Shown here: positions 1-54,069 of the stretch, in pieces
How the letters are laid out: every line of letters begins with the position of its first letter
Numbering within the stretch: position 1 is the first letter of the stretch
From: Squalus acanthias
Taxonomy: Eukaryota
NCBI GenBank assembly: GCA_030390025.1
Contig: CM059431.1
Coordinates: 124,746,001-124,810,000 of the forward strand
DNA length: 64,000 nucleotides
Direction of reading: 5' to 3'
The notes under the pieces: generated by a model
Databases searched by the model: none
Told to the model about the DNA's origin: nothing
What the model saw: the letters and a program-made list of their open reading frames with translations, nothing else
Position numbers and translations under genes: made by a program

Positions 1-991
1 GGCTGAACTCTGCAGGACGAGCAGCATTCTGTGTTTCTCTGGACTCTGTTGACTCTGGACTTTTAGCCGCACTGGACGGTTATTCGAATTGGAACGAGTC
101 GCCCCGACGAAGGCCAGTGACCGGGTGCACCATCCCGAGAGTCGGTAAACGGTGTTTGGACCTGAAGGCCCAACAAGGCGAGACGAAATGACAAGAGAAG
201 AAGAAGAATCCACGTGCCGCCGCGGTCAGTAAACCCCGACCGTGCCCGAAAATATACGACCCATTTCTTGAACTCTACAGGTTACTGCACGAACTGGTCG
301 AAGACTCTTCTTTGAATTCTGCCGGTAACTGGTGTCGGTCCAGGAAGACTTTTCTTTGAGTTCTACATCCGGGCCCGAGCACTGTCGAGTTCTTCATGAC
401 AACGGGGAGCCCAGCCTGCTTGCAGCAGCAGCGAAAGTAAACAAGTGGGGTACAGAGACCCCTCAAAACACGTGACAGTCAGGCGCTGCAGCGAAACGAG
501 CCAAGCGCCTCACCTTAAAATTCTCCGAAGTATCACGAGTGGTGAGCATGTTTCCCGATCCTACAAATCTAGATGTAGTGTAGGTATTGATAGGGGAGGG
601 TGGTTTTATTAAGGATAAAGTATAATGTGTTCCCCTTTTTACGATGTGCCGTGCGTTCTTCATTACCATAGACCAAGCTTTATGAATGTATCTATACTTG
701 TACTGTCGTTAATTTGTGCCTATGACATGTACTTAATGATTTTGGACGCTATGCAATAAAGATTTCCATTTCGTACTATTCAACCGGGTCTATTTGAGTT
801 TCTCTCTGCATTATTGCTCTCGCACCTAAGTCCAGTGTTAGAACCGTAAGGGCGAGTGAGTCGAACCACTCACAGGTGCTTATTGCAACAAGGCTGGCCG
901 GAGACCAGAGCAAGCAATAGTATTAGGCAACGAAGGCCTAACCCCGCACCAGCACCGTCTGCGATACAAGCACGACACACAACCCCTTACA
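1..991 (+). repeat. 5' LTR of element A (partial, R-U5 part)
   Basis: Ends CCCCTTACA followed by GAAAA and the PBS; homologous to the LTRs at 4956, 8500 and 15600; AATAAA at 755. Confidence 0.93.
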
Positions 992-995: not shown

Positions 996-2794
996 ATGGT
1001 GACCACGAAGGGACTCTGGCAGCGAGAGAGTAATATTTCAGACCCTGGTGTGAATAGGCGAAATGTGATGGATGAGAGGGTAGCCGACTATGTGTTTGGG
1101 AAGGTTCACTTAACCAAAAGGTGGATAAGTGACCTACTGATGGATAAGCGTCCGCTAGACATAGCCATCAAATGGACAGGCAGTAAAGAGCATAAGAAGT
1201 CGGTGGAGAAAGCGGTCTGGCTGATGTGCTACAAGAAGCAGGTCCAACTTTCGGACCAGGTCATTGTAGCACAGGCAGCTCAGATCAGGGACTGTGAAGT
1301 TGAGATGGAGGAAAAGGTCACGGGAGGACAGAAACTCATTGCATCCTTGAATGCGTTACATCAGGAACGCCAGATAGTAGCCAACCACCATGAGGCTAAA
1401 ATTGATTACCTAGAGTGCCAGGTCACGGAAGCAAAGTTAAACGAGGGTAGGATTAGAGAACGGTGTGCCCGCCTAGCTAACCAAATAAAAGCCTAGGAAG
1501 AAAGCTTGAAGGGAGTTAGGGCGGCATACAAAATGGCCCTCGAGGATAGGCATGAGGGAGCCGACCACAGTGTTTGTCAGAAGGAGATAGGGAGCCTAAG
1601 AGAGGCCCTGAATAAGGCAAACGGCTTGGTGTGCCTCATCAGCCCGTCAGCAAACCAGCCACAGGTGGGTAGGGAATTCCCAAAATCCCTACCAGACAAA
1701 GCAGAGGAGGTATTTGCCACTGCGCCCTCCGCGCCACCCAGCTATACGGCAACCTGGGTAAGGGAGGAAGTGGTGGAAATAGAGAAGTAGGTTCCCGAGG
1801 TAGGACAATCCCCAGAGGTAGAGTCGAGCCCGGGACCGATGTGTCCGCTCCGAGGTCACAAGAGAGGCCCGAACGCAGCCAATGGGGATGACGGGGATGT
1901 CCTGAACCAGCTGGTATTGCCTCACAGCTCACACCAGCTGAGAGCAATGATTAGCCATGTACGGAAGCTGTCCGAGTCAGACGACCCTTCTGTACACTTC
2001 AGGGAGGTAGAACAGACCGCAGCAATTAATGGCTGCGACGATGAGGAAAAGACCAAAATGTTGCTGTTCTCTTCAGATAGCTCGATCCTTCAGCGTCTCT
2101 CCGACGAGAGCAAGAAGGGGAATAAAACTTATGAGGAGTTACGGGACGAGGTCCTAGAAGTGTTAGGGACGGATGACGAAGGTCCGTTCGTCAGATTGAG
2201 TCAAACCATACAGATGGAGGGAGAACCCCCGAAGGTTTTCGCCGACAGGCTGTGGCCAGTATACCAGCGTAGCTGCCCAGGTGCGCCAGCATGCACCTAT
2301 CCGAACGGTGCCGGTTTAACTCATTGGCTCAGGTGTTTAGTAGCCAACAGTTTGCCAGCCGTCAGGGAACAGGCCAAAGCGTGGTTTGATCCCACTAACC
2401 CCGCCACAACAGAGGAGTCTGTCCTAAATCGACTCACCATAGGGTATCGTAACACTAGGAGCACGGGAGCGCGTCCCCTTAAGGGAAAGGTGCATGAGGC
2501 ACGGCCCGCAGCCCCAGCTCAAAAGGAGTGGCATCAGGAGGGAAACCGCGTCCCACAAGCCAGTGGTGCTTGTTACGGGTGCGGGAAGACAGGACACTGG
2601 CGTAAGAACTGTAGGAACCCCTGGAAGGACCCCAGGGACAAAGCTCCCGCATCCGAACGCAAGCGCCTGTCTCTGAGAAAGGAGCCGGTGTGCCTATCCA
2701 TCCCGATGCGATAGACTCAATGTTAGGAGCCATGCGGTCTCTCATGACCTCACACGGGGAGGTAGCAACAGCCCCATACCACCCAGGCTTCTGA
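996..2794 (+). pseudogene. gag: gag of element A, disrupted (in-frame TAG at 1494 and 1788, 1-nt frameshift near 2650)
   Basis: ORFs 996-1496, 1506-1790 and 1839-2714 share one frame and align to Gag of B; CYGCGKTGHWRKNC zinc knuckle; PSAPPSY motif. Confidence 0.92.
997..1014 (+). promoter_or_regulatory. Primer binding site, tRNA-Arg(TCG)-like
   Basis: TGGTGACCACGAAGGGAC is complementary to the 3' end of a vertebrate tRNA-Arg(TCG) isodecoder (...GTCCCTTCGTGGTCG-CCA, recalled from memory) with one C>T change. Confidence 0.75.
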
Positions 2795-3811
2795 CTGGGA
2801 CCGGTGCAGCCTGCCTACCTGTGTCCCCTTGAAAGACACGCCCAGGGGGAGGTCTCCTGTAGGGAGGCCAGGTTAAAAGAGCAGGCCTTGTGGGAGGAGA
2901 ACGCCCGCTTAATGGGGAAAATAGATGGGCTAGAAGGGCAGCTTAGAGACATAAAGGCAGCCTGTAGGGTAGCCAGAAGCAAGTTGTATAAACCGGGTGC
3001 ACAGGGGCCAATCACAGGGGCCAAACCTGCGAGTGGGGACTCTCAGCCCCGGGTAGAACCGCAGGGCACACAGGCCGGTAAAGCAGCCTGCTTGAGGGGA
3101 GAGGACATTCTAGAAAAGTGTAGGATCTCTTCTTGGGGTTGGGATTCAGATGAGTAAGAGCTCGAGGAGCTCGACCAAGGTAGTGACCCGATCGGAGAGG
3201 TGCTGGGGTCGGAAGACAAAAGTTTCGTCCTCGACCCAAGCTCAGGGAAGACAGGGGCTGTGAGTGGAGATCCACACAGGGTGGAATCAGAAACTGCAGA
3301 TCCCGAGCCCAGGGGGGCGGGGCCAGGGGAGACAGAGCCAGCGGCTGTGGTAGGACCACAGGTCGTGACGGTGGAAGTCTCGGTACCCGGTCCGTCGGCC
3401 CTGGAAGTCTTGCCCTTGGGGGAGGTAGGGATTGCGAGTGGAGGACCACATACTGGGCCAAGTAGGGTGGAGCCAGAAACTGCAAATCCCGAGTTCAGGG
3501 GGGCGGAGCCAGGGGAGACGGAGCCAGCGGCTGTGGTGGGACCACAGGCCGTGACGGTGGAAGTCTTGGTTCCTGGTCCGTCGGGCCTGGAAATCTTGCC
3601 CAAAGTAGCCCTCCGTAGATCAAGTCGGACACCCCAGCCCAGAAAGCCGTGGTCAAGTCCCCCGTACGCCCCCAGGCGTAAGTTCAAGGTCAAGGCAGCC
3701 CAGGGAGATCCCAGTCCCAGCGCAGCGGCGACAGGCTGCGGCAGATCAAAGGAAGGGGTCAGTGCCCTCCCACCACTGGGGAAAGCTCGTAGCAGCCTTC
3801 GCAGAATTTAG
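2795..3811 (+). pseudogene. Residual pol-frame ORF: pol N-terminal stub + coiled coil + pol C-terminal tail (one internal TAA at 3155)
   Basis: QPAYLCPL matches QPVYLCPL in B; KLYKPGAQG...ARSSLRRI matches KLYQPGAQG...ARSSLLRI in B; ORFs 2804-3157 and 3200-3811 are in frame. Confidence 0.85.
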
Positions 3812-4090: not shown

Positions 4091-7000
4091 ATGGAACGGA
4101 TTCTGATAGTGCTCGCAACGATCGGATATGGATTGGCCTATCGAGGCCTCACTAAGGATGTCGTTGTGTTTGGTTGCTCCGGGGACACGGCCCCCATCGC
4201 GACGGATGGGACCGGGGAGCGAGAGGCTGAGGAGACCGCCACTTATTTCCACAAGGGAAGGTGGCCGGGATGGCTGGGAACGAATTCGACGGAATACTCC
4301 AGCGCATCCGGATTTGCCTACAAAGAGACTTCTTTGCTGTGCCCCAGGGTGAGCATCATTGCACCCAGAATCAGCGTCACCGTCGGCAAAAGGATTTGTT
4401 TGACATGCAATGGGAAGGTCCCATTGAGCCGATGGTGGTGGTTACGGAAGTTAAGCAAGACTATGAGAAATTCCTCTGTCGAGTGGGAGCGATTGGGTAA
4501 CAATACCCATCGGACAATTACGGGGACTAATGGACAATTGAAAGTCTGTTGGGACAAATGGTGGGAACCGGATGAGGGAATATATGTTTGTATGTGGGGA
4601 TCGAAGTACGTTTGCCCCAAGGGTATATCCATATTTTTCCTACAACAGTGGCAGGATAACAGGAAAGTGATGAGGTGGGATGTCAGCACAAAGGGGTGCG
4701 GAGCTCCATTCTCCCCGATCCTGGTAAACGCCACTGAACTCATCACGCGCCAACGCAAGTCTCCGCCCACGATTCCGGTGGCTTTGGCTCAGGAGGAAGG
4801 GTGCCCAAAACCCACTAAGGGGCCCGGGAATGGTCTGGTACTGGTGCCAACAGATCAGATACTATTTCAGGGGCTACATTACGCGGTGGCTTCGGTGATT
4901 CTAAATCTCACCGAGGTGCATTTACCAGAGTGGTGTCCCAAAGAAACGGAACAATTGTAAAGTTTTGCAATTATCGCGATTCAAAATAACAAGATAGAAG
5001 CAGATTTGTTTGATCAGTTTTATTAAACAAAATGCTGTCATGATATACAGGACACAGAAGCCTGTAAAATGGCCACCACGCATCGTGGCAGAAGCTTCCA
5101 GAAATATAGTGGGCAGACAAGATGGCGTCGAATAAACATTCGATATAAAATTGGATCATACTCGATAAACACTGATAAAGACAGGATGCAACCTGTTTGC
5201 ATTTGTGACAATAGCAAAGATATAAGTGCTGGAATCGTTTTCCATGCACAAGTATGGACCATTGTACTGGGCAATCGAAGGCCCATCCAGACACATCAAT
5301 ACACAAATACCCCCACGGCTCTACAATGAGAGAGACATCGACGGGTGATTAAGCAAGTATTCGGGGGCCCCCAAAACCAGTCAGGGAGACAATTCATTCA
5401 ATCCTGGCTGGGTCAACAATGGGGAAAACATTAACGGGTAGTTGGCCAGTTTCAGGTGCTACCGAAACCCGTTAAAGAGAAGAATCGCCCCATGCTGGGA
5501 GTTTTGAGTGCCAATATTACACAAAGGACAAACATTAAGATTTGAGCGGGAGATAAGGGTACACAGCACTATAACTATAGTGAACAAATGTCCATCGCTC
5601 TCTTGACTCGTGCTGGACTCTTATGCCCTGTATTCGGTCTCTTATCTGACTGCTGAACTCTTTTTTCTCTTGACTCGCTCGACCGCTGGCTGAAGCTCTT
5701 CTTTAGGGCTGGACTCTGTTGACTCTTGACTTTTCGCCGCATTGGTCGAATGTTGGGTGGAGCTCAATCGGGACGAGCCACCCCGACAAGGGCAAGTAGC
5801 ATGGTGCACCATCCCGAGGGTCGGTAAACGCTGTGTGGACCCGAAGGCCCGAAAAGACAAGACGAAACGACAAGAAAAGAAGAAGAATCCACGTGCCGCC
5901 ACGGTCAGTAAACCCCGACCGCGCCCGAAAATACAAGAAAGACTCTTCATTGAAATCTACCGACAACCGGTGTCGGGAACAGGAAGACTCTTCTTTGAGT
6001 TCTACAACCGTGTCCGAGTTCTGTCAAGTTCTTCATGACAACAGGGATTCTGGCCTGCTTGTCGCAGAAGCGAAAATAAACAAGTGGGGTACAGAGACCC
6101 TTCCAAACACGTGACAGTCAGGCGCTGCAGCAAAACGAGCTGAGTGCCTCACTTTAAAATTCTCCGAAGTAACATGAGTGGTGAGCATGTTTCCCGATCC
6201 TACAAATCTAGATGTAGTGTAGGTATTGATAAGGGAGGGTGGTTTTATTAAGGATAAAGTATAATGTGTTCCCCTTTTTACGATGTGCCGTGCGTTCTTC
6301 ATTACCGTAGACCAAGCTTTATGAATGTATGTATACTTGTACTCTCATTAATTTGCGCCTATGACATGTACTTCATGATTCTGGATGCTATGCAATAAAG
6401 ATTTCCATTTCGTACTATTCAACCGGGTCTATTTGAGTTTTTCTCTGCATTATTGCTCCTGCACCTAAATCCAGTGTTAGAACTGTAAGGGCGAGTGGGT
6501 CGAACCACTCACAGGTGCTTATTGCAACAAGGCTGGCCGGAGACCAGAGCAAGCAATAGTATTAGGCAACGAAGGCCTAACCTCGCACCAGCACCATCTG
6601 AGACACGAAACCCTTACACAATTGTACCTGGTCCTGTTAACAAACATGTTCAGGCAATTTTATGAGTTTGATTTTGCAGAGGTTGACTAAACAAGCTTAT
6701 ACACCACACCACACGAAGTTTTGGGTCAGGTGGGGAGACAAAGAAGGGGTGTTGTGAATGATGTGTTCACTGCTTTTAATACGGGAACATCTGTGGTCAA
6801 CGCTCTAGACAACGTGAAGCTGCAGACCCAGATCAACGGTTAAAAAACACAGTTAAAAAGCATCCTCACAAACGAGAACAAGGTGGTAGGGTCTGAGTTA
6901 CATGAGGACCAGGCCATGACACTACACTTAAAAGAGATTATAGCAGAGCTGGAGAAGCATGCGAGAACGGTAAATACCCTGATCAGGGAAGATCGAAATG

Positions 7001-8109
7001 CATCCGATCAAGCTGCGCAGAACGAGGTGTGTGTACTATACGGGGCGTGGTTACTGGCCGAGGGCCGCAGTAATTTGGAGGATTTAAAACAAGGTTTGGT
7101 CCCGTCCTGGATAAGCAACAAACACCTGCAGGCGCTCCACCCTTTTCAGAACGCATTAAGCCTGTGCCAGCTCAGGCTAGCCTCAGAGGCATACCCAGTC
7201 CCAGTGGACTGCGGACGGTCAAATCATACTATCATGGGGATAGTAGTACGGATGCTGGTGTTGGGCGACACAGCAAAGCCCGCCCTGGTGTACCGGGTGG
7301 AGAACATTGGTGTCATTCAGGGGGGAGCCCACATTTGCTACGCAGCGGTCCCACCTTACATCATCTGCTGGGAGCAAACGATGACAGGTACCGACCTATC
7401 GGGTTGTCGTGGCCGGGGAGCACACATCATACTGTGTCCCCAGCACTTGAATGCCTTTTTAACACCACAATGCGGGTTCAGAACGGCTGGCGCGAAGCCC
7501 ATGAATTGCACCATGGAAGCAATGACACAAGATCATGTGCCCCCACAGGTGGCATACATAGGCGGTGGAACGTATTGCGTTACCACTGCAGCGCAACACT
7601 ACCAGCATGGACAGCACAGCCGGTGTCCGGTGAGTGACAGCAGTTTCTGTTTTAAACCCAGGGCTGAAGTTCAAGTGGCACAACAGCGAATTGTCCCGAT
7701 CCCTGAACCATCCACTGTTCACCTCACAGTAAAAGAGAATTTCACAGACTTGCAGCGATTCGTCGCGCATTTCGGGTACATCATTCCTCCTCTCCCTGAA
7801 CACCTCACCAAGATTTTAAAAGCTGTCATGGTATCACAGAAACATTTTTAAACCCTGGATTAGAAAACTGTAGAGATAGGGACAGAAATATTGGACACAG
7901 TAACCCCACCGTGGTGGGATCTGTTCACTAATATTGAAGTCCCGTCCTGGATCAGGATAGCCTCCCACATTTTGGTAGTGTGTCAAGTTGTAATTGTAGT
8001 GTACCTATTGGTCGTACACTGCAAAAGAGGCAAACGCCTCACAAGGCAGGAGAACACAGGGGAGTGGAGAGAACGTTACGTGCGCGTGAACGAGGAAAGT
8101 ACCGCGTAA
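4091..8109 (+). pseudogene. env: env of element A, split by a solo LTR at 4956-6618 and carrying several premature stops
   Basis: ORFs 4091-4960, 6883-7851 and 7891-8109 are nearly identical in protein to B env; EQL|YLVL is continuous across the insertion. Confidence 0.93.
4956..6618 (+). mobile_element. Solo LTR inserted in env of element A
   Basis: TGTAAAG...CCTTACA termini; 4-bp TSD CAAT at 4952-4955 and 6619-6622. Confidence 0.95.
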
Positions 8110-8499: not shown

Positions 8500-10149
8500 T
8501 GTAAAGTTTCGCAATTATCGCGATTCTAAATAACATAAGAGAAGCAGATTCATTTGATCAGTTTTATTAAACAAAATGCTGTCCTGATAATAAAGGACAC
8601 AGAAGCCTGTAAAATGGCTGCCGCGCATCGTGGCAGAAGCTTCCAGAAACACAGTGGGCAGACAAGATGGCGTCGAATATACATTCAGTATAAGATTGGA
8701 TCATACTCGGTAAACATTGATAAAGACAGGATGCAACCCGTTTGCATCTTAAACAATAGCTAAGATATAAGTGCTGGAATCGTTTTCCTATGCACAGTAA
8801 GGATCATTGTACTGAGCAATCGAAGGCCCATCCAGACACATCAATATACAAATACCCCCCTGGCTCTACAATGAGAGAGACATTGACGGGTGATTAAGTC
8901 GGTATTCGGGGGGCCCCAAAAACCAGTCGAGGAGACGATTCATACACATCCTGGCTGGGTCAACAATGGGGAAAACATTAACGGATAGTTGGCCAGTTTC
9001 AGGTGCTACCGAAACCCGTTAAAGAAGATAATCGCCCCATGCTGGGAGTTTTGAGTGCCAAATATTACACAGAGGACAAACATTAAGATTTGAGCGGGAG
9101 ATAAGGAGGACACATCACTATAACTATAGAGAACAAATGTCCATCGCTCTCTTATTCCCCGGGCTGACTCTTATTCGCTTGCCTCTTCATGAACTCGCTT
9201 GACTTGTGGGCTCTTGATTTTCTCTCTGGACTTTGTTGGCTCTTGACTCTTAGCCGTACTGGTCGGTTATTCGAGTGTTGGGTGGAGCTCAATCGGTACG
9301 AGCCGCCCCGACAAGGGCAAGTAACAGGGTACACCATCCCGAGTGTCGGTAAACGGTGTCTGGACCCAGAGGCCTGAGGAGACGAGACGAGAAGAAGACG
9401 AGAAGAAGACGAGAAGAAGTTTCACGTGCCGCCATGGTCAGTGAACCCCGACCGCGCCCGAAAAATATAAATACAGGACTCTTCTTTGAGTTCTACCGAC
9501 TACAACCTGTGTCGAACACAGGAAGACTCTTCTTTGAATTGTATCCGAGTTCCGTCGAGTTCTTCATGACAACAGGGAGTCTGGCCTGCTTTTCGCAGCA
9601 GCGAAAGTAAACAAGTGGGGTGCAGAGACCCTTCCAAACACGTGACAGTCAGGCGCTGCAGCAAAACGAGCTGAGTGCCTCATTTTAAAATCTCCGAAGT
9701 AACACGACTGGTGAGCATGCTTTCCGATCCTACAAATCCAGACGTAGTGTAGGTATTGTTAAGGGAGGGTGGTTTTAAATAAGGTTAAGAGATAATGTGT
9801 TCCCCTTTTTACGATGTGCCGTGTGTTCTCCATTTCCATAGACCAAGCTTTATGAATGTATGTATACTTGTACTATCTTTGATTTGCGCATATGACATGT
9901 ATTTCATGATTTTAGACGCCATGCAATAAAGATTTCCATTTCGTACTATTCAACTGGGTCTATTTGAGTTTTTCTCTGCATTACTGCTCCCTGCACCTAA
10001 GTCCAGTGTTAGAACCGTAAGGGCGAGTGGGTCGAACCACTCACAGGTGCTTATTGCAAAAAGGCTGGCCGGAGACCAGAGCAAGCAATAGTATAGGCAA
10101 CAAAGGCCTAACCTCGCACCAGCACCGTCTGAGACACGCCCCCCTTACA
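8500..10149 (+). repeat. 3' LTR of element A
   Basis: Preceded by AGGAGGGAC (PPT); TGTAAAG...CCTTACA termini; 1650 bp. Confidence 0.95.
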
Positions 10150-21559: not shown

Positions 21560-21744
21560 TCCCTGCTAAGATTATGACTAAATAATTCATTTTTTACTTT
21601 GTGAAATTACAATTTTCCATCTTTTGGCAAATACCATATCTAACAGTTGAGCTGGACTTTTTCTTTGTCCAATACATTAATCAAGATCTTCTAATGGGTG
21701 CAAAGGATAAGGAATTCATATATTCAAGACATAGATCGCTAGAT

Positions 21745-43039: not shown

Positions 43040-44689
43040 TGTAGAATTCGCAATTATCGCGATTTCATTTTAATAAGGAGAAAACACAAGTTTCGTTCAA
43101 AACAGCTTTTATTTCAGCGGAATGCTGTCAGGTTTAAATTGGACACAAGCAGCCTGTAAAATGGCCGCCGCACCGCGTGACAGAACATTCGAGACTTTTC
43201 GGCAGGCAGACAAGATGGCGTTCCAATAAACATTTTTGCAGGATCGATAACGATTCAGCACAGTGAAGACAATACACAGGACATTATGGGTTTACAGTAT
43301 AAACATCGATACTGGAATCGGTCTCCCAGGTACAAAGGAAAGCCATCAAGGGCCCATCCAAAGGACATTAATATGTAAACTCCCAACGGCTCTACGATGA
43401 GAGAACCGTTAGCAGGTAGTTATACAGGACACTTGGAAGCCCCAAACCCCTCCAGGGGGAACACCGACCGATTTGACAATGGGAGAAATATTAACAGGTA
43501 CTCAAACATTCAGGAGTAGCCCCGAAACCCATTAAGGACAGAGATCACCCATACAGGACATTTTTGGGCGCCAAACCTTAAACAAAAGAATGGACATTGT
43601 AGTTGGGCGGGAAACGGAAGAACTGTGCACTATAATTGCAGGCCCAAACCGTCCATTCGCTCTCTTGACTCTTGCCTCGTGTTCGTGACTCTTGCTCTTT
43701 TGCTCTTGACTCTTGCCGCTTGCTGCTGTTATCATCGTGGCTGCTCCTGTGTTTTATCCGGTCGATTCGTAACCTCGTGGCTGCTCCTGGGTAAAAGACT
43801 GTTGCAAAGACCTATGTTGGTAGCTGGCAGCGGAACCGAAGGCCCGGGATGAGACGAGATGAGATGAGATGAGATGAGAGGAGAAGAGAAGAAGACCTTA
43901 TCCATCGCCACGGTCAGTAAATCCCGACCGCGCCTGTAGGTCGATCAGCCAAGTCTTCTCGACAGGAAGTTTTCTTCTTTAACAAGACATATTGCATCGA
44001 TGATAACTGGACTGTGCAAACACATCGTATCAGCGATATTGACAACGGTGCTCCACCATACCCTGTATCCAACCAACAGAGGTCTTCACTACAGCGGACG
44101 GTCCAGCCGACTGACCGAGCAGCAGAAGCAGTAAACAAGTGGGACCAGGAGATCTCCTGACCAACACGTGGGTGCTGCGGTGAAAAACATCCGATCAGCT
44201 ATTCGGGATTTCTCCGAGTTATTACGAGTGGTGAGCATGAGTCTCGGGATCCTACGAAGCTAGTTTTAGGATAGTTATTGATAGGGGAGGGTTTAAAGTT
44301 TAAGGATATTTGTAATGTGTGCCCTATTTACGTTGTGCTGGTCGTTCCTCGTTTCCCTAAGAGTGATTATAACTGTTTGTAAGATTGTACTGTCATTAAT
44401 CTGTGCATATGACATGTATTTCATAATTTTAAGTATCATGCAATAAAGATTTTCCATTTCGTACCGTTCAAACCAAGTCTACATGAGTTTTATCTCCATT
44501 ACTGCTCTCGCATCTAAGTCCAGTGTCTAGAACCGTAAGGGAGAGTGATTCGAACCACTCACAGGGGTGTCTAGTGTTCCCAGACTGGCTGGAGACCAGG
44601 CCTAGACCCGCACTGACATACAGGCTGCACAGAGCCGCGTGAACCTCACAGGCCACGAGACACGCAGGGTCAGGAGAGTATCCCTTACA
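43040..44689 (+). repeat. 5' LTR of element B
   Basis: TGTA...TACA termini; TATAAT at 43631; AATAAA at 44442. Confidence 0.97.
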
Positions 44690-44693
44690 GAAA

Positions 44694-46505
44694 ATGGCGA
44701 CCGCGGCAGGACACTGGCAGCGAGAGGGTAGTGTGTTAGATTTTGGAATGACTGTACGAAATGTGATGCAGGAAAAGATAGCGGATTACGTATTTGGAAA
44801 GGTTAATCTAACGAAAAAGTGGATAAGCGAACTGTTAGCGGATAAGAGCCCCCTAGAGGCAGCTGAAAGGTGGACGGATAGTAAGGAGCATAAAAAGGCA
44901 GTTGAGAAAGCAGTCTGGCTTATGTGCTACAAAAGGCAGGTTCAGATTTCAAACCAGACCAATACAGCGCTAACCGCTCGAATCAAGCAGTTAGAGGAGG
45001 AAATGGAGGAGAAGGTTTCTGGAGGGGAGGCGCTCATTAAGAGTTTAAATGAGTTACGCCAGGAAAGCCAGGAAGTCTCCAGTTACCTTAAAACAAGGGT
45101 AGAGTATCTCGAGTGCCAGATCACTGAAGCAAAATTAAACGAGAGTAGGATGAAGGAAAGATGTAACCGTCAAGCTGCCCAGATAAGAACTCAAGAAGAG
45201 AGCTTAATGGGGGTTAGGTCGGCGTATAAGTTGGCCCTTGAGGATAAGTTTCAGGGAGCCGACCATAGCGCCTGCGAAAAAGAGATAGAGAGCCTCAAAA
45301 AGGCCGTGAATAATGCGAACGGCATGGTGTGCCTTATTAATCCGTCGGCACGCCAGCCGCTAGTAAATGAGAGATTTAGAAATTCCCCACCAAGTAAAGC
45401 AGAAGAGGTAGTAGCCACTGCGCCCTCCGCGCCACCCAGCTATTCAGAAACCTGGGTTAGGGAGGAAGCAACGGAAGAAACAAAAGAGCCCGTTGAAAAG
45501 GAGGTAGAAAAGGGATCGTTGTATCCAGTAACGGGGATTAAAAGGGGCCCAAGCAGAAACGGTGGGGAAGAACCGGGGGATCTCCTCGGACAGCTGGTGT
45601 TGCCTCACAGTTCACATCAGCTGAGGGCTATGATAAACCACGTAAGGAAGCTGACCGAGATAGACGACCCTTCCGTACATTTTAGGGAAGTTGAGCAAGC
45701 CGCAGCCATCAACGGCTGCGATGATGGGGAGACAGCAAAAATGCTGCTGTTCTCTTTAGATAGCTCGGTCCTTCAGTGTCTCTCAGGCGATAGCAAGAGG
45801 GGTAATAAAAGTTATGAGGAATTGAAAAATGAGGTCCTAGAAGTAGTGGGAGCGAACGACGGAGGTCCGTTTGCTAGAGTGGGACAGACAGTGCAGATGG
45901 AGGGAGAACCCCCGAAGGTTTTTGCCGACAGGCTGTGGCCAGTATATGAGCGCAGCTGTCTAGGTGCGCCCGAGCGCGAAGATGTGGAAGGCGCCGCTTT
46001 AATTCATTGGCTTAGGTGCATAATAGCCAACAGTTTACCAGCCGTTAGAGAGCAGGCAAAAGCCTGGTTCGATCCCAATGACCTCAACCTTACGGAAGAG
46101 TCGGTCTTGAATCGACTCACGTTAGGTTACCGTAACATAAGGGGTATGGCAACACGTCCCTTTAAGGGAAGAGTACATGAGGTACGACCCGCAGCCCCGG
46201 CTCAAAGAGAGTGGCATCAGGAGGGTAATCGCGCCCCACAGGCAAGTAATGCCTGTTACGGGTGTGGGAAGACAGGGCACTGGCGCAAGCACTGCAGGAA
46301 CCCTTGGAAGGATTCCAAGGATAAAAATCCCGCGGTCCGAGCCCAGGCGCCTGTCCCGGCTAAGGAAGCAAAGGCACCCACCTCTCCCGAAGACCTCGAG
46401 GCAGTGTTAGGAGTCATGCGCAAGATGGTTTTGAATGCGCGTGGACAGGTGGCGGTCGCAACCGGCCCCGTAGGTGCCGCAGGACCGTCTAATAGTGCCC
46501 CATGA
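44694..46505 (+). CDS. gag: Gag (603 aa): coiled coil, PSAPPSY late domains, capsid-like region, single CCHC knuckle
   Basis: Position directly after the LTR; CYGCGKTGHWRKHC; open ORF. Confidence 0.95.
   Translation: MATAAGHWQREGSVLDFGMTVRNVMQEKIADYVFGKVNLTKKWISELLADKSPLEAAERWTDSKEHKKAVEKAVWLMCYKRQVQISNQTNTALTARIKQLEEEMEEKVSGGEALIKSLNELRQESQEVSSYLKTRVEYLECQITEAKLNESRMKERCNRQAAQIRTQEESLMGVRSAYKLALEDKFQGADHSACEKEIESLKKAVNNANGMVCLINPSARQPLVNERFRNSPPSKAEEVVATAPSAPPSYSETWVREEATEETKEPVEKEVEKGSLYPVTGIKRGPSRNGGEEPGDLLGQLVLPHSSHQLRAMINHVRKLTEIDDPSVHFREVEQAAAINGCDDGETAKMLLFSLDSSVLQCLSGDSKRGNKSYEELKNEVLEVVGANDGGPFARVGQTVQMEGEPPKVFADRLWPVYERSCLGAPEREDVEGAALIHWLRCIIANSLPAVREQAKAWFDPNDLNLTEESVLNRLTLGYRNIRGMATRPFKGRVHEVRPAAPAQREWHQEGNRAPQASNACYGCGKTGHWRKHCRNPWKDSKDKNPAVRAQAPVPAKEAKAPTSPEDLEAVLGVMRKMVLNARGQVAVATGPVGAAGPSNSAP
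44695..44712 (+). promoter_or_regulatory. Primer binding site, tRNA-Arg(TCG)
   Basis: TGGCGACCGCGGCAGGAC is the 18-nt complement of ...GTCCTGCCGCGGTCG-CCA (vertebrate tRNA-Arg-TCG, recalled from memory). Confidence 0.82.
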
Positions 46506-49500
46506 CTAGAACCAGCACAGCCCGTCTACCTGTGTCCGCTCAGCTATGATGCGTGGAGGCGACCTGTGGTGGAGATGGAGGTAGAGAAACAAAAGGGCAG
46601 TTATTTGTTGGACACGGGAGCTTCTTGCACCATAATCCATACAGATGACCCTTTTGACTCGCCGCTATCTACCAAGGTCCCATTCACGCTAGCAGGGTTC
46701 ACAGGGAAAGAACAGGCTGGCACGTTTTCCCTCCCGCTATCCATTCGTTTAGGGACACTTCGCCTTAAGTGGAAGTGTATACTGATGGCATGGCAAAAGG
46801 GGGGTGGAAGAGGTATTCTCGGGTCCGATCTGCTAGCGGGACACGGGATCCTCGTGGACCTCAGAAATCACTGTCTCTGGGGGGCTAAAGGGGAAAAAGG
46901 CGAGGTAATGGTAATTCAAGGGGAGGAAGAAACAGGGGTCCTGTGTACCGTACAGCCATCCGGAGGCTACGACCTCAGGCTTATGGTCGCAGATGTCCCA
47001 ACGGACATGCAAACGTACGTGACAGATAATATGCACGCGTTTGCAACCCACAAGCACGATTGTGGGAGGGTGGTCGGGTTTGAGGTCAGCGTAGATGGGG
47101 ACCCCATGACCCGACCCCAAAAGCAGTATAACTTCCCCAAAGAAGCAGAACCCGATATGGAGGCAGCAATGTCTTCCTTGGTGCAGCAGGGCGTGTTGAG
47201 GCCGATAGCCACACACGTGAACTCCCCATTATGGCCGGTTAGGAAGCCGGATAATTCGTGGAGAGCCACGGTGGACTACAGAGTCCTTAACAGTAACATC
47301 CCCGCCTGCGCGCCCACAGTAGCAGCAGTTGCTGACCTAATAGGGAGCATCCCAGCGTCCGCGACCACGTTCACGGTGCTGGATATCTCGAACGGTTTTT
47401 GGTCCATCCCGCTGCGGCGAGAGGACCAGTACAAGTTTGCCTTTACGTTTAAAGGGCAACAGTACACGTGGAACTGCTTGCCACAAGGTTTCCACAATAG
47501 CCCCAGTATTTTTCACCAGTGTATGGCAGGAAGTTTAAAGGAGTTTAGTCAGCCCAATCAGATAGTACAGTATGTGGATGATTTGCTCCTATTTACGGAC
47601 TCAAGGGAGGAGCACGGACCACTGCTGGACGAGTTATTGGAGCTGTTAGCGAGAAAGGGTTTTAAAGTAAACCCAAAGAAAGCACGTATCGGTCAGCAGG
47701 AAGTAAAATTCCTGGGACTGACCCTACGCGCTGGGGAAAGAGCCATAGACAAAGCAAGGAGGGAGTCGGTACAAGAATTACCGATTCCCAACAACGTAAG
47801 GGGTGTGAGGTCCTTCTTGGGACTGACCGGTTACTGCAGGGATTTTATCGAGGATTATGCGGCCACAGCGGCGCCGCTCCTCCGACTCCTCCATAAGGGA
47901 GTAGAGTGGCTTTGGGACGAGGGCTGCCAAGCAGCCTTCGAGAAGTTAAAAAGGGATCTGCAGACCGCGCCAGCCTTAGGGGCCATAGATGGGGGGAAGG
48001 AGTTTTTCCTGGAGGTAGCTGCCAGCGGAGACAGCTTAAGCGCCGTGCTGCTCCAAGAGCGTCACGGCAAGCTGAGGCCGGTTGTCTATTCATCCAGGGT
48101 ATTAACGGATGTGGAGAGAAGTTTTTCCAATTGCGAAAGGCACCTTTTAGCCACGCATTGGGCTGTGAAAAGATCAGCGATCTTCACAGGGCTCTCTCCC
48201 ATCACTCTCCTCACACATCACACACCAACTAAGATGCTTCTGGATGGGAGGATTAAAGACGGGACCGTAAGCAGCGCACGCATTGCGCGTTGGACCCTTC
48301 TTCTCTCCCAGTTGGACATCAGAGTAAAAGGTCTTTGCGAGCCCAGGCTTGCGGCCAATTTGGTATACCCCGGTACAGCCCACCGGTGTTCGGTGGAGGG
48401 GGTGTGGGAGGTCAACATAGGTTTACGGGCCGGGATACATCCCACTGGGCGCGAGATTTATGTTGATGGGTCTAGCACAGTATCTGCTGGCGAGCGACTC
48501 ACAGGGTGTGGAGTTTATGACCCTGCGGCAGACCTTGCCCTGGCGATCAAGCTCCCTAGCACCATGAGCGCGCAGCAGGCTGAGCTGTCTGCCGTGGTGT
48601 ACGTGGTAACCCACCCAGACATTTTCCCAACCCCATACACGATTTGCTCGGACAGTATGTTCACCTGCAATTCGTGTACGGAATACCTGGCCATTTGGTC
48701 CCGCCGTGGATACACCTCCGCGGACGGGCGACCTTTAACGGTAAAGCCCTTGCTGGAGAAGATCTTAGCAGCAGCAGTAGGGGAGGAAGGGGAGATTTTC
48801 ATCCATAAAGTGAAAGCTCACTCCTCCACAGAGCCCCGTGGGGAGGGCAACCGGCAGGCGGATGCGCTAGCCAGGGAGGGTGCCCGCGACGGTACTTTCT
48901 GGAACCCCTATAGAACCGGACCCATAGCAGCGGTCCGAGGTGGGGACGGGAATACCGGGAACACCAGGGTAGCATTGCCCCTAGACCTTAAGACCGTCCA
49001 AGCCCAGGATCCCGCCCTAAAAGCAGTCCTAAAAACGATTGCTGAGGGGAGGCAGGTAGAAGGTCCGTACAGTACGGCAACCCTCTCAGTTAAGGAAGGC
49101 ATGCTGTTCCGCGAGGAGCAGTGGGTTGTGCCGCAGCAGCACAGGAGGGAATTCCTCCAGTTGGCTCACGAGGGACCAGGGGCAGGGCACCCCGGGCCCG
49201 AGGTTACCTGGCAACGGGTAGAGCAAGCGGGATGGTGGCCAGGGCTCAGGGAACAAGTCCGCGAGTTCTGTGCAAACTGTCTTGTGTGCGCTGCAAACAA
49301 CCCAGACCCCCAGAAAAGGAAGGTGCCCATGGGACACGTAAGAAGGGTAGAGGGACCATGGCAGTCGATACAGATCGACTATATAGGACCCCTGCCCACC
49401 ACCCAGGGAGGTTATAAGTACTGCCTCGTCCTGGTGGATGTGTTTTCCAAGTGGGTGGAAGCCTTCCCTTGTCGAACAGCTACGGCACTGGGTACAGCAA

Positions 49501-51008
49501 AAATCTTGGTCCGGGAAGTGTTCTCGCGGTGGGGACTCCCCCGTTTCGTGGAGTCAGACCAAGGGAGTCATTTCACCGGCCAGGTGATGCAGAACACCCT
49601 CATGCTTTTGGGCATTGAAGGGAAGTGGCACGTAGCACACAATCCCCAGTCATCCGGGATTGTTGAACGTATGAACCGGACCCTGAAGGAGAAATTGAGG
49701 AAAGAGACTAGGAACTCGCCCCAAAAATGGGCGGAAGTTCTGCCTTTAGTCCTCATGGGGGTCCGGGCCAGTCAGTCAAAAAGTACGGGGTACTCCCCGC
49801 ACGAGGTAATGACCGGCAGGCTCATGCGAACCCCCACCCATGTGCTAGCCCCGGTGCTCACTGAGGGTCAGCTTCAAGAGATCAGCAGGGACAAGTTCGC
49901 CCAAACTCTCTTGGAGCGCCTGAAGCAAGTTTATGAGCAGGCGGCTGGGAACATGGGAAGGCAGCACCAGGGCAATCGCTTGTTGCTGGAACCCCGCAAA
50001 ACGCGGGAGTGGGAAGTAGGAGACCAGGTCATGGTCAGAAACTACGCCAGAGTAGGGAGTCTGGAACCACTGTATATGGGACCCTACAACATTGTAGACA
50101 AGGCGAGTCCCATGGTTTACGCCGTAAAAGTACCTCGGCGCACTAAGTGGTTCCACATAAACCAATGTAAACTGTACCAGCCGGGTGCGCAAGGGAAAAC
50201 TACAGGGGTAAATCCCGCCAATGGGAAAACACAGCCCCAGGTAGGACCACAAGGCACACAGGCAGGCGTAGCAGCTTGCATCAGGGGAAGGGACATCCCG
50301 GACGATCATGCAGCGTTTTTCTGGAGTTGGGGGTTAGATGACGAGGACCCCAGGGTACCCTGGTCAGATGAGGATAGTGCAGATGAGCATAGTGATGATG
50401 ACGGGTGGTTTCAGAGGAACGGTCTGGAAGGATTGGGGCCGCTAGGTAGAGATCCATACGGGGTGGACACACAAGCTGCAGGTCCCGACAGCAGGAGGAA
50501 GGAGCTAGAGGAGGCCGGGCCAGCCGCTATGTGGTTCCCAGAGGTGTGGCCGCCCGCTTTGAACGTCCAGTCCTCAGGGGAGGCAGAGTTCGCGAGTGAA
50601 GGGCCGCCTGCTGGGCCGAGCAGGGCGGGGCCCCGAACTGCCAGCCCCGAGGTTAGGGAGGCGGAGTCAGCGGAGGCGGGGCTGGCGCCTGTGATGGAAC
50701 CCCAGGTCATCCCGTTGAAGGTCTCGGGACCCGGTCCGTCCGTCACGGAGCCCCCGCCCATAGCAATTCCCCGTAGGTCAAGCAGAGTACCCCAGCCCAG
50801 GAAGACGTGGTCAGGTCCACAGGCTGCCCCAGGGCGTAAGTTTCAGGTTAAGATAACCCGGGTAGAGACAGGCCACATCGAGGCAGTAACAGGCTGCGGC
50901 AGATCAGAGGAAAGGGTCAGCGCAGCAACAGGCTGCGGCAGATCAGAGGGAAGGGTCAGTGCCCTCCCACCGTCGGGAAGAGCTCGCAGCAGCCTTCTCA
51001 GGATTTAA
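46506..51008 (+). CDS. pol: Pol (PR-RT-tether RH-RNase H-IN-long tail), in frame with gag after TGA
   Basis: LLDTGA; LPQGFHNSP; YVDD (47571); IYVDGS/SAQQAEL/SDS/KVKAH/GNRQAD; HHCC; QIDY...ESDQG...SSGIVERMNR. Confidence 0.97.
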   Translation, partial: LEPAQPVYLCPLSYDAWRRPVVEMEVEKQKGSYLLDTGASCTIIHTDDPFDSPLSTKVPFTLAGFTGKEQAGTFSLPLSIRLGTLRLKWKCILMAWQKGGGRGILGSDLLAGHGILVDLRNHCLWGAKGEKGEVMVIQGEEETGVLCTVQPSGGYDLRLMVADVPTDMQTYVTDNMHAFATHKHDCGRVVGFEVSVDGDPMTRPQKQYNFPKEAEPDMEAAMSSLVQQGVLRPIATHVNSPLWPVRKPDNSWRATVDYRVLNSNIPACAPTVAAVADLIGSIPASATTFTVLDISNGFWSIPLRREDQYKFAFTFKGQQYTWNCLPQGFHNSPSIFHQCMAGSLKEFSQPNQIVQYVDDLLLFTDSREEHGPLLDELLELLARKGFKVNPKKARIGQQEVKFLGLTLRAGERAIDKARRESVQELPIPNNVRGVRSFLGLTGYCRDFIEDYAATAAPLLRLLHKGVEWLWDEGCQAAFEKLKRDLQTAPALGAIDGGKEFFLEVAASGDSLSAVLLQERHGKLRPVVYSSRVLTDVERSFSNCERHLLATHWAVKRSAIFTGLSPITLLTHHTPTKMLLDGRIKDGTVSSARIARWTLLLSQLDIRVKGLCEPRLAANLVYPGTAHRCSVEGVWEVNIGLRAGIHPTGREIYVDGSSTVSAGERLTGCGVYDPAADLALAIKLPSTMSAQQAELSAVVYVVTHPDIFPTPYTICSDSMFTCNSCTEYLAIWSRRGYTSADGRPLTVKPLLEKILAAAVGEEGEIFIHKVKAHSSTEPRGEGNRQADALAREGARDGTFWNPYRTGPIAAVRGGDGNTGNTRVALPLDLKTVQAQDPALKAVLKTIAEGRQVEGPYSTATLSVKEGMLFREEQWVVPQQHRREFLQLAHEGPGAGHPGPEVTWQRVEQAGWWPGLREQVREFCANCLVCAANNPDPQKRKVPMGHVRRVEGPWQSIQIDYIGPLPTTQGGYKYCLVLVDVFSKWVEAFPCRTATALGTAKILVREVFSRWGLPRFVESDQGSHFTGQVMQNTLMLLGIEGKWHVAHNPQSSGIVERMNRTLKEKLRKETRNSPQKWAEVLPLVLMGVRASQSKSTGYSPHEVMTGRLMRTPTHVLAPVLTEGQLQEISRDKFAQTLLERLKQVYEQAAGNMGRQHQGNRLLLEPRKTREWEVGDQVMVRNYARVGSLEPLYMGPYNIVDKASPMVYAVKVPRRTKWFHINQCKLYQPGAQGKTTGVNPANGKTQPQVGPQGTQAGVAACIRGRDIPDDHAAFFWSWGLDDEDPRVPWSDEDSADEHSDDDGWFQRNGLEGLGPLGRDPYGVDTQAAGPDSRRKELEEAGPAAMWFPEVWPPALNVQSSGEAEFASEGPPAGPSRAGPRTASPEVREAESAEAGLAPVMEPQVIPLKVSGPGPSVTEPPPIAIPRRSSRVPQPRKTWSGPQAAPGRKFQVKITRVETGHIEAVTGCGRSEERVSAATGCGRSEGRVSALPPSGRARSSLLRI

Positions 51009-51291
51009 AGGGGCCGCCCTGAGAACGGGCGGCATTGTAAAGTTATTAGTTTAAGGTTTTAAGTTTTAGTTTAAAGTTTTAAGTAGTTTTAATAAGTTTA
51101 AGTTTGTAGTGTTTTTAACAGATAACGACAAATGATGGGAGTTTTAAGGCTAGGTTTAGAGGAAGTCTATTTAGCAAACGTTGAAGTTTACGTGAGGCGA
51201 GGTCAGGGGACCCGCTCACCCTTCACAAAAGCCAGAGACTTTTTGCGAGGCTGGCTACCTCATTCTATCTGATCACAGGAACCAAGGAAGG

Positions 51292-53643
51292 ATGGAACGA
51301 CTTCTAGTTTTGCTCGTGGCAATCGGATGTGGATTGGCCTATCGGGGCCTCACCAAGGATGTCGTGGTGTTTGGATGTTCCGGGGACACGGCCCCCATCG
51401 CGGTGGATGGGACCGGGAGACGGAAGGCAGAAGGGACCAGCACCTATTTCCACAAGGGAAGGTGGCCAGGATGGCTGGGAACGAACTCAACGGAGTATTC
51501 CAGCACATCGGGGTTCGCCTACAAAGAGACTTCTTTAATGTGCCCCAAAGTACGGATCATCGCACCCAGGATCAGCGTCACCGTCGGCAAACGGATTTGT
51601 TTGACCTGCAGTGGGAATGTCCCATTGAGCCGATGGTGGTGGCTGCGAAAGCTGAGCAAAACTATGAGGAACTCTTCGGTTGAGTGGGAGCGACTGGGTA
51701 ATAATACCCATCGGACAATTACGGGGACAGATGGACAAGTGAAAGTCTGTTGGGACAAATGGTGGGAACCAGATGAGGGGATTTATGTTTGTATGTGGGG
51801 GTCAAAGTACGTTTGCCCCAAAGGCATCTCCATATTCTTTATTAACCAGTGGCAGGATAACGGACAGGGGATGAGGTGGGATGCGAGCACCAGGGGGTGC
51901 GGAGCCCCATACTCTCCGATCCCAGTAAATGCCACTGAGCTCATTACGCGCCCACGCAAAGCCCCGCCCACGATTCCGGTGGTTCTAACTGAGGAAGAAG
52001 GGTGCCCTAAAACTAGTAAGGGACCCGGGAACGGTTTGGTACTGGTCCCCACAGACCAGATACTATTTCAGGGAGTGCATTACGCGGTGGCCTCGGTGAT
52101 TTTAAATCTCACTGAGGTACGGTTACCAGAGTGGTGCCCCAAAAAGACGGAACAGTTGTACCAGGTCCTGTTGACCAAGATGTTCAGGCAATTTTACGAG
52201 TTTGATTTTGCAGAAATTGATAAGACAAGTTTGTACACCGCACCGCAGGAAGTTTTGGACCAAGTAGGGAGGCAAAGAAGGGGTTTGGTGAACGATGCGT
52301 TCACTGCTTTTAACACAGGGACATCTGTGGTCAACGCTCTAGACAGTGTGGAGCTGCAGACCCAGATTAATGGTTTAAAAACACAGTTAAAGGATATTCT
52401 TACAGATGAGAATAAAGTGGTAGGGTCGGGTCTGCACGAGGACCAAGCCATGACACTACACTTAAAAGAGATTATAGCAGAGCTGGAGAAACATGCGCGT
52501 ACGGTAAATGCCCTGATTAGGGAAGATCGGAATGCATCCGATCAAGCTGCGCAGAACGAGGTGTGCGTGCTTTACGGGGCGTGGTTACTGGGCGAGGGCC
52601 GCAGTAATTTGGAGGATTTAAAACAAGGTTTGGTCCCGTCCTGGATAAGTAACAAACACCTGCGGGCGCTCCACCCTTTTCAGAATGCATTAAGTCCGTG
52701 CCAGCTCAGGCTAGCTTCAGAAGCTTACCCAGTCCCCGTGGACTGCGGACGTTCAAACCATACTATTATGGGAATAGTATTACGCATGCCGGTTTTGGGC
52801 AACACAGCAAAGCCCGCCCCGGTGTATCGGGTAGAGAACATTGGTGTCATTCAGGGGGGAGCCCACATTCGTTATGCAGCGGTTCCACCTTACGTCATCC
52901 GCTGGGAGCAAACGATGACAGGTACAGATCTCTCTGGTTGTCGTGGCAGGGGAGCACACATAATACTGTGCCCCCAGCACTTGAATGCCTTTTTAACACC
53001 ACAGTGCGGGTTCAGAACGGCTGGCGCCAAGTCCATGAATTGCACCATGGAGGCAATGGCCCAAGATCATGTGCCTCCGCAGGTAGCATACATCGGGGGT
53101 GGAACATATTGTGTTACCACTGCAGCGCAACACTACCAGCATGGAAACCGTAGCCGGTGTCCGGTGAGTGACAGCAGTTTCTGTTTTAAACCCAGGGCTG
53201 AAGTTCAAGTAGCACAACAGCGAATTATCCCAATCCCTGAACCATCCACTGTTCATCTCACAGTAAAAGAGAATTTTACCGACTTGCAGCGATTTGTCGC
53301 ACATTTTGGGTACCTCATTCCCCCTCTCCCCGAGCATTTAACCAAACTTCTGAAAGCCGTCGCGGTGTCACAAAAGCATTTCTATACATTAGAACAGAAA
53401 ACCGTCGAGATAGGTACAGACATTTTGGACATAGTGGTTCCACCGTGGTGGAATCTGTTCACGAATATTGAAGTGCCCTCATGGGTCAGAATAGCCTCCC
53501 ACATTTTAGTCGTCTGTCAAGTGTTTATTGTAGTATACCTTTTGTTCATACATTGTAAAAGAGACAAGCGCCTCACCAAGCATGAGAACACGGGAGAGTG
53601 GCGAGAACGTTACGTGCGCGTGCACGATGAGAGCGCAGTGTAA
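51292..53643 (+). CDS. env: Env (783 aa): signal peptide, Ig-like domain, furin site RQRR, fusion peptide, heptad repeat, Cys-rich region, TM, YxxPhi tail
   Basis: Hydrophobic N-terminus; RQRR|GLVNDAFTAF at 52270; C-terminal TM IASHILVVCQVFIVVYLLFI; splice acceptor ATCACAG at 51278. Confidence 0.93.
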   Translation: MERLLVLLVAIGCGLAYRGLTKDVVVFGCSGDTAPIAVDGTGRRKAEGTSTYFHKGRWPGWLGTNSTEYSSTSGFAYKETSLMCPKVRIIAPRISVTVGKRICLTCSGNVPLSRWWWLRKLSKTMRNSSVEWERLGNNTHRTITGTDGQVKVCWDKWWEPDEGIYVCMWGSKYVCPKGISIFFINQWQDNGQGMRWDASTRGCGAPYSPIPVNATELITRPRKAPPTIPVVLTEEEGCPKTSKGPGNGLVLVPTDQILFQGVHYAVASVILNLTEVRLPEWCPKKTEQLYQVLLTKMFRQFYEFDFAEIDKTSLYTAPQEVLDQVGRQRRGLVNDAFTAFNTGTSVVNALDSVELQTQINGLKTQLKDILTDENKVVGSGLHEDQAMTLHLKEIIAELEKHARTVNALIREDRNASDQAAQNEVCVLYGAWLLGEGRSNLEDLKQGLVPSWISNKHLRALHPFQNALSPCQLRLASEAYPVPVDCGRSNHTIMGIVLRMPVLGNTAKPAPVYRVENIGVIQGGAHIRYAAVPPYVIRWEQTMTGTDLSGCRGRGAHIILCPQHLNAFLTPQCGFRTAGAKSMNCTMEAMAQDHVPPQVAYIGGGTYCVTTAAQHYQHGNRSRCPVSDSSFCFKPRAEVQVAQQRIIPIPEPSTVHLTVKENFTDLQRFVAHFGYLIPPLPEHLTKLLKAVAVSQKHFYTLEQKTVEIGTDILDIVVPPWWNLFTNIEVPSWVRIASHILVVCQVFIVVYLLFIHCKRDKRLTKHENTGEWRERYVRVHDESAV

Positions 53644-54028
53644 TGGGAAAATGGCGTCACTCCCGCTCGCCACGTGCGCCGCGGAAGTTTGTACCCATTG
53701 TAAATACGTTGGAAACTCGACATGTTTAAGAGTCGGGATTTGTTTATTTTGGTGATGGTGTTGATTGTTTGGTTTTTGGGTTTTGTTTTTCCTTCCCTTG
53801 AATAAAAGACAAATATACAGGTGATGCGTGAGGTATCGGCCTGGTTACGCCGGGAAGGAAAACAAGTGGTGTAAGTTTAAGGGCAAATGATGCCTACGGT
53901 GATATAAAATGTGATTTTTTCTTGGGAAATGAGGACGACACAGAGACCCTAGTGAAGTTAAAATTTTATGGGATTAATTTACTGGATTCGGAGTGAAATC
54001 GAGATAAGATTGCTCACCACTGAGATTT

Positions 54029-54069
54029 TTGATACGATAAGCGGAGTTATTCGCATCAACAGGAGGGAC
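54029..54069 (+). promoter_or_regulatory. Conserved hairpin and short polypurine tract before the 3' LTR
   Basis: TTGATACGATAAGCGGAGTTATTCGCATCAACAGGAGGGAC is identical in A (8459-8499) and B. Confidence 0.8.

Follow-up and report, generated by a model that had tools for sequence, protein, structure and literature searches.

Evidence for a non-autonomous endogenous retrovirus family of Squalus acanthias with a Gag-like cassette in place of the pol enzymes

Layout of element A and of provirus B

We analyzed a stretch of 64,000 nucleotides of the Squalus acanthias genome (GenBank assembly GCA_030390025.1, contig CM059431.1, positions 124,746,001 to 124,810,000 of the forward strand), hereafter the window, whose first letter is position 1. 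It holds a broken endogenous retrovirus (ERV), element A, and an open provirus, B. Element A is very likely a decayed member of a family of approximately 400 non-autonomous ERVs that carry a cassette in place of the enzymes and that would obtain Pol from autonomous relatives. The features of element A, bounded by long terminal repeats (LTRs), are as follows.

1..991, + strand: 5′ LTR, represented in the window by its 3′ 991 nt; end motif CCCTTACA (984-991)
996..2794, + strand: A-type gag, broken; aligned to B 44210-46420 (73%); family gag 87-95%
2795..2830, + strand: first 12 pol codons, kept (LGPVQPAYLCPL); diversity very low across copies
2831..2980, + strand: insert, a 50-codon shortened form of the 128-codon family cassette; diverged copy of Gag residues ~137-240 (helical region)
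2981..3811, + strand: tail, the integrase end plus C-terminal pol extension in the cassette frame; rejoin at B 50169
4091..4955, + strand: env, 5′ part; aligned to B env from 51292; family env 95-96%
4956..6618, + strand: solo LTR of a related subfamily, inserted in env; CAAT on both flanks; 84-86% identical to the other LTRs of A
6619..8109, + strand: env, 3′ part; aligned to B 52152 onward at 81%; open reading frames (ORFs) 6883-7851 and 7891-8109
8500..10149, + strand: LTR closing element A, then AT-rich non-viral flank; not the twin of the 5′ LTR

The gag stop, TGA at 2792-2794, is directly followed by the 12 pol codons, which match LEPAQPVYLCPL of provirus B at 9 of 12 residues. The next 50 codons (13 to 62 after the TGA, ERHAQGEV...RVARS) have no nucleotide match to B, and from 2981 the sequence rejoins pol in the frame of the TGA (KLYKPGAQGPITGAKPASGD / KLYKPGAQG). 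Its counterpart in B, KLYQPGAQG from 50169 onward, begins at pol residue 1222, at the end of the SH3-like domain of integrase, and is followed by an extension of ~280 residues. Between these points, 3,627 nt of B (46542-50168), which encode protease, reverse transcriptase, RNase H and integrase according to Pfam, lack a counterpart in element A. The nucleotide alignment of A and B accordingly consists of two blocks (A 521-2736 with B 44210-46420; A 2985-4959 with B 50173-52160), and the ~250 nt of A lying between them match nothing anywhere in B. An earlier note, made from the letters of the window alone, had described this arrangement as a TGA, about 11 pol codons, about 50 novel codons and an in-frame return to the integrase end with about 3.6 kb missing; the description holds, the figures being corrected to 12 codons and 3,627 nt.

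Element A itself is dead, its gag, tail and env all being broken. Its gag contains in-frame TAG codons at 1494 and 1788 as well as a frameshift near 2650-2700, which puts the TGA at 2792 out of frame with the gag start at 996, and its tail is interrupted by an in-frame TAA (3155-3157) ahead of the natural stop at 3809-3811. Element A is also a hybrid at the level of the locus rather than a single integration, because its 5′ LTR begins within pol of another ERV, 654 nt upstream of the window (TGTAAAG, L090:198), its closing LTR adjoins non-viral DNA, and the two LTRs are only 81% identical. The DNA just upstream of window position 1 (L090:1-197) is the part of that other ERV coding for reverse transcriptase (translation ...EVSVDGDPMTRPQKQYNFPKEAEPDMETAMSSLVQQGVLRPI) and hosts the 5′ LTR, so that the region is a nest of insertions. 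The earlier note's suggestion of a lineage making a Gag-coil-tail protein together with Env thus fails for element A; the interpretation behind it is largely right for the family and wrong for the copy on which it was based.

Three side observations concern element A and its start. A 138-nt stretch of the tail is doubled (3278-3415 and 3464-3601; 186-nt spacing, 90% identity), one unit being absent from some family copies. The gag ATG at 996 overlaps an 18-mer resembling a primer-binding site (997-1014): its TGG is the first triplet of the 18-mer, five bases past the LTR end, in element A (996-1014), in provirus B (44693-44712) and in L062, a 10-kb family copy (~3070), so that the leader between LTR and gag is nearly absent in all three. 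The 18-mer of element A differs from that of B, L062 and a second 10-kb copy, L063.

Provirus B has the following parts.

43040..55719, + strand: provirus B, autonomous relative; open gag, pol and env; TTGA on both flanks
43040-44689 and 54070-55719, + strand: LTRs, 1,650 nt each, 1 mismatch (99.94% alike)
44694-46505, + strand: gag, then a single TGA stop
46506-51008, + strand: pol, in the same frame as gag
51292-53643, + strand: env, open frame

Pfam recognized protease, reverse transcriptase, RNase H and integrase in B pol and matched no family in B Gag or Env; among public proteins, B Gag is most similar to an uncharacterised one of a skate (51% identity). The first 150 residues of B pol are identical in 150 of the 150 genome matches listed, 123 of which have open pol frames of at least 1,479 codons (hand count). 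The B family is therefore very young, very abundant and autonomous, and the B-like Pol donors postulated by the earlier note are available in quantity. L062 and L063 have the same LTR ends as B (TGTA...CCCTTACA) and also its 18-nt primer site. Provirus B was ruled out as the parent of element A, their gag genes having 72-75% nucleotide identity and their LTRs being alike only in patches. Compared with B, the cassette family is 87-88% identical in env and only 72-75% in gag. Two further loci, L087 and L088, join integrase to an A-type tail and to a C-type-like tail, respectively, and elements of this kind are plausible sources of the tails of the cassette family.

Dispersed copies and origin of the cassette

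Junction words were counted in the 3.7-Gb genome with at most 2 mismatches; a reversed control gave 0. The 5′ junction, from pol codon 12 into the insert, occurs at 413 places on many contigs. Window positions 2700-3100 are found nearly whole at 26 places including the window itself, with 85-100% identity, and at 14 further places the counterpart of 2980-3016 is exchanged for ~237 nt. On the 3′ side, with a slash marking the join, DLN/HGPCEE occurs at 279 places and DLN/QCKLYKP at 50, while the exact junction of element A, RVARS/KLYKP, occurs at 3 including the window. The latter is a 27-nt deletion of the 50-copy form, itself derived from a longer cassette, and most family copies contain an insert of 128 codons rather than the 50 of element A. 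Asked of the whole genome, then, the junction is not unique: the shared 5′ junction appears in several forms and on many chromosomes, and the earlier view that this is no simple deletion at one locus stands. The expectation of a family with one and the same junction is borne out on the 5′ side only, since the 3′ junction of A is a secondary form found at three loci.

Structural forms were defined from translations of 63 loci and from an unbiased sample of 20, namely the first 20 places on contigs C1 and C2 that match the 5′ junction word exactly.

Type 4: C-type gag, ~128-codon cassette, own tail; 10 of 20 unbiased copies
Type 2: A-type gag, same cassette, A-type tail joined at ...ACHRG/GAKPASGD; 5 of 20
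Type 3: type 2 with a 23-codon internal duplication; 4 of 20
Type 1b: cassette truncated at ...EYEDLN, then the integrase end QCKLYKPGAQG; 1 of 20
Type 1a: the form of element A, type 1b minus nine codons (27 nt); 0 of 20

A further form with a 46-codon deletion was seen at L029. The reading frame is kept in all five recurrent structural forms. In the unbiased sample, the TGA is kept in 18 of 20 copies and the downstream ORF is open for at least 290 codons in 9, with about as many disruptions per codon as the end of gag, as expected for decay after insertion. The copy L062 has an open gag of ~600 codons and, in the same frame, an open ORF of 369 codons. LTR pairs are 97.8% alike in L062 and 99.1% in L063. 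No counterpart of B 46542-50168 exists in L061, L062 or L063, and the ORF lists of L062 and L063 are without protease, reverse transcriptase, RNase H and integrase. Contigs from four sequencing runs of two studies contain cassette pieces and further junction forms and are uninformative as to expression. Two type-1b copies on contig C10, L004 and L005, lie ~186 kb apart on opposite strands and are nearly identical, flanks included, within the 3.4 kb compared; they probably represent a segmental duplication rather than two insertions, and one of them was left out of the selection counts below.

Is the cassette a copy of part of Gag, as the earlier note proposed? For the 50 codons of element A alone the likeness is slight: 14 of 37 residues are identical in an ungapped alignment (hand count), and BLASTP against B Gag gave a non-significant E value of 1.6. 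The 128-codon cassette, by contrast, aligns colinearly and ungapped to one stretch of Gag (residues 145-217), whichever of the three lineages is used, and shares with Gag the motifs HGPC and GMVC.

Cassette and C-type Gag: 38-44% amino acid identity, E 7e-16 to 1e-17, 59% nucleotide identity
Cassette and A-type Gag: 36-37% amino acid identity, E ~1e-13, 46% nucleotide identity
Cassette and B Gag: 32-33% amino acid identity, E ~1e-11 to 1e-12, 47% nucleotide identity

The Gag origin is thus real, because the long cassette is colinear with the Gag helical region at E values down to 1e-17. Synonymous differences between the cassette and present gag genes amount to 0.58-0.89; over the stretch matching the cassette, A and B gag differ at 25% of nucleotides, and the distance of either from C is about that of the cassette from C. 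Judging from these alignments, the cassette is a paralogue of the Gag helix that is either old or fast-evolving, and the C-type lineage is the closest to it. The search for the Gag donor gave this nearest lineage and no close donor. Among 1.84 billion representative public proteins, the cassette had 6 matches with E <= 0.001 (29-45% identity), and the five that were inspected (P0006 being left out) contain the Gag helical region or are Gag fragments. For the 369-residue ORF, no match of near or greater length was found among 5.8 billion proteins. One of the public matches, P0005, a predicted protein of 203 residues from another assembly, has a Gag-helix-like start running directly into an Env-like N-terminus, which hints at still larger gag-to-env deletions in related viruses.

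AlphaFold2, given the single cassette sequence, predicted helices at 22-70 (predicted local distance difference test score 87-98 over 21-60), 72-92 and 101-118, the remainder being disordered, and a Pfam coiled-coil domain matched weakly, below threshold; the cassette is thus predicted to form long helices. On the 3′ side of its Gag-like part, the cassette closes with a short stretch that is a diverged copy of how the tail begins. An origin in two steps would fit: a deletion from mid-gag to the integrase end would have come first, and recombination would then have set the resulting piece downstream of a complete gag with its first 12 pol codons.

The cassette has also changed backbones. Type 4 diverges from types 2 and 3 at 38% of nucleotides over the final 600 nt of gag and at 42% in the tail, and at only 7.4% over the span that opens with the stop and closes with the cassette (2-3% within the 3′ half of the cassette); the cassette has therefore moved between lineages by recombination. 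The pattern places it in at least two lineages; the pathway of spread we infer. The shorter cassette forms may stem from template switching to helper genomes at a short motif that both have (LN-H / IN-Q), the junction of element A being a further 27-nt deletion of such a short form, and co-packaging with autonomous relatives would account for the mosaic structure of the family.

Selection, readthrough and alternative explanations

The family layout is LTR, primer site, full gag, TGA, an ORF of 300-400 codons in the gag frame, env and LTR, the ORF consisting of the 12 pol codons, the Gag-derived cassette and the last integrase residues with their long C-terminal extension. The satellite lineage with Gag, a readthrough-frame ORF and env imagined in the earlier note is hence recovered as a layout in family members. 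Such elements would make their own Gag and Env and would take Pol from autonomous relatives in the same genome that share their LTR ends and primer site. Dependence on these relatives, and mobilisation in trans, are suggested by the missing enzymes together with signs of replicative spread, which are indirect: purifying selection on gag, LTR pairs that are 97.8-99.1% alike, and recombination with helper-type tails.

In retroviruses of the murine leukaemia virus type, gag and pol lie in one frame on either side of a stop codon and are expressed by readthrough. Provirus B and the satellites such as L062 likewise have a single stop between gag and the next ORF in one frame; here the stop is TGA, and no known readthrough pseudoknot family in Rfam matches. 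Because the stop is retained, the 12 codons are conserved and the frame is kept, a minor Gag-cassette-tail readthrough protein may be made in place of Gag-Pol and may enter Gag lattices through its extra Gag-derived helix. We put the chance that such a protein is made and helps the parasite at somewhat below even. More doubtful is a stronger version, in which the cassette would be an adaptive hijacking module, a transferable gene for parasitism whose extra helix enters or biases mixed Gag lattices so that the parasite RNA gains helper Gag-Pol; since such a module would pay, it would have travelled by recombination between retroviral lineages, at least two of them, making parasites of autonomous backbones.

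We classed variants as shared (in at least 2 copies) or as singletons, which serve as a neutral control within the data, and compared synonymous/non-synonymous (S/N) counts and the N/S ratios. The 33 type-2/3 copies had been picked by likeness of the insert protein, are biased for the insert, and were used only for gag and tail.

gag, 25 type-1 copies: shared S/N 137/75, ratio 0.16; singleton 130/155, ratio 0.35; Fisher p 3e-5
gag, 33 type-2/3 copies: shared 144/153, ratio 0.31; singleton 131/286, ratio 0.64; Fisher p 6e-6
pol codons and cassette, unbiased 20: shared 20/27, ratio 0.41; singleton 22/55, ratio 0.75; Fisher p 0.12
pol codons and cassette, 25 type-1 copies: shared 11/17, ratio 0.43; singleton 17/17, ratio 0.28; Fisher p 0.45

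Purifying selection on gag is clear. For the cassette it is suggestive and unproven: shared variants of the type-1 sample depart from site counts (binomial p 0.027), and in the comparison of insert and tail that the earlier note proposed, a ratio of ~0.4 is obtained for the insert without being significant against singletons, the tail being near neutral and under little selection.

Several results weigh against a family of satellites that live by a functional cassette. The shared-variant ratio of the cassette does not differ significantly from that of singletons (p 0.12 and 0.45), its maximum-likelihood omega is 0.68 in the unbiased sample, and its ratio is 0.86 in the 33-copy sample, biased as that is. 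In the same biased sample, the 3′ half of the cassette is equally conserved at both site classes (pS 0.018, pN 0.019), which a recent sweep or an RNA-level role fits as well as a protein role, and the tail ratio is 0.56-0.88. Both of the 10-kb copies in which env was read, L062 and L063, have it in a broken state. A full-length element with A-type gag and pol was not found, the pattern of A-type gag followed by pol giving 3 matches that are all cassette copies. Mobilisation, readthrough and the fusion protein are, moreover, deduced from sequence.

The cassette could instead have been kept for a role of the RNA, such as a readthrough signal, packaging or dimerisation, the protein being a by-product. 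Nucleotide diversity of 2-5% between −5 and +360, compared with at least 10% in the flanks, would be expected in that case, as would the conservation of synonymous sites in the 3′ half of the cassette, and the first 100 nt past the TGA fold at −37 to −44 kcal/mol (z −1.2 to −3.0; minimum-free-energy folding is blind to pseudoknots), with a predicted 13-bp stem joining the pol codons to the cassette. The low diversity is, however, partly due to how the 33-copy sample was picked. Among 32 predicted pairs in 61 distinct sequences, only one pair shows a compensatory double change, in one sequence; the stems are nearly invariant, so that this count is uninformative either way. No Rfam match lies near the gag stop of B or of the satellites, and an RNA role does not account for the frame kept in all recurrent length variants. 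We regard this explanation as possible, if improbable.

Alternatively, the cassette may be a neutral scar of illegitimate recombination in elements that owe their success to gag, env and LTRs, having hitch-hiked as co-packaged RNAs recombined. The lack of a significant difference between the N/S ratio of the cassette and that of singletons agrees with this, as do the near-neutral tail and the junk centre held by other centre-swapped ERV parasites (PMC10924933). It is made unlikely by the five of five recurrent forms that are in frame (chance ~0.4% if independent), by a shared-variant ratio of ~0.4 in two samples, and by the strong conservation of the stop and the 12 pol codons. Finally, a one-off deletion at this locus with a Gag likeness due to chance coiled-coil composition, which the E value of A's short insert and the three loci with its exact 3′ junction might suggest, is refuted by the 413 copies of the 5′ junction and by the colinear alignment of the long cassette with Gag, motifs included, and is extremely improbable.

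Neighbouring elements and known systems

The remainder of the window contains further repeats and mobile elements. A satellite array of 30-bp repeats (12172-15596 and 17198-21561, over 200 units combined) is split by another solo LTR of the same superfamily (15600-17194). An ORF of 572 codons at 35427-37142 (+ strand), which matches RVT_1 and GIY-YIG weakly, is suggestive of a Penelope-like retroelement. ORFs at 62255-63130 (− strand), with a reverse transcriptase match, and at 38466-39260 (− strand), with a Myb/SANT-like DNA-binding match, probably belong to other mobile elements.

Among known systems, we compared the cassette family with the mouse IAP element I-delta-1. This ERV is reported to have an internal deletion and to depend on full-length relatives for Gag and Pol in trans; its novel in-frame gag-pol fusion works in cis to promote retrotransposition of the element, which outnumbers its helper among new insertions (PMC6466679). 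Internal deletion and an in-frame fusion ORF are common to both, as dependence in trans probably is. In I-delta-1, as presented there, a plain deletion of 1.9 kb has fused gag with pol, and env is absent; in the shark family, unlike I-delta-1, all pol enzymes are gone, a paralogous Gag segment is inserted, the fusion lies behind a stop codon and env sequence is present.

A second comparison is offered by the D-type elements of bovine ERVK[2-1-LTR]; the paper on these lists ETn/MusD, IAP I-delta-1 and recKoRV, with a centre swapped for a piece of an old retroelement as the shared pattern (PMC10924933). Bovine ERVK[2-1-LTR] D-type, mouse ETn/MusD and koala recKoRV/KoRV-A are, as here, pairs of a parasite and its parasite, with an old retroelement centre, flanking gag and env (or pol) parts that are kept, and recombination between helper and parasite (PMC10924933). 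According to the same paper, the bovine, mouse and koala parasites are without functional genes, whereas gag and cassette-tail frames are open in some copies here; unlike in those pairs, the piece swapped in is an in-frame diverged Gag helix, common to lineages with different gag. The family therefore fits the trans-complemented, centre-swapped kind of non-autonomous ERV, in that the enzymes are absent, a shared junction is dispersed, a helper with matching cis signals exists and the centre derives from an old retroelement. A limited search of the open-access literature found no description of this family, which does not show that none exists, and on skate or shark ERV parasites it turned up general surveys only.

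In the ERV parasites known from mouse, cattle and koala, as far as these sources describe them, the swapped centre is non-coding junk or a plain deletion. The shark family differs in that the enzymes have given way to an in-frame Gag helix copy behind a stop, that gag and env sequence are carried along, and that lineages whose gag genes are far apart have the cassette in common. The readthrough protein, if functional, would represent a naturally occurring protein module dedicated to stealing the polymerase of a helper, and would provide a handle on how Gag lattices admit Gag-Pol. With well over 100 near-identical intact autonomous copies residing alongside the satellites, the genome of S. acanthias offers a rare case of a helper and a parasite that may both be mobile to this day.

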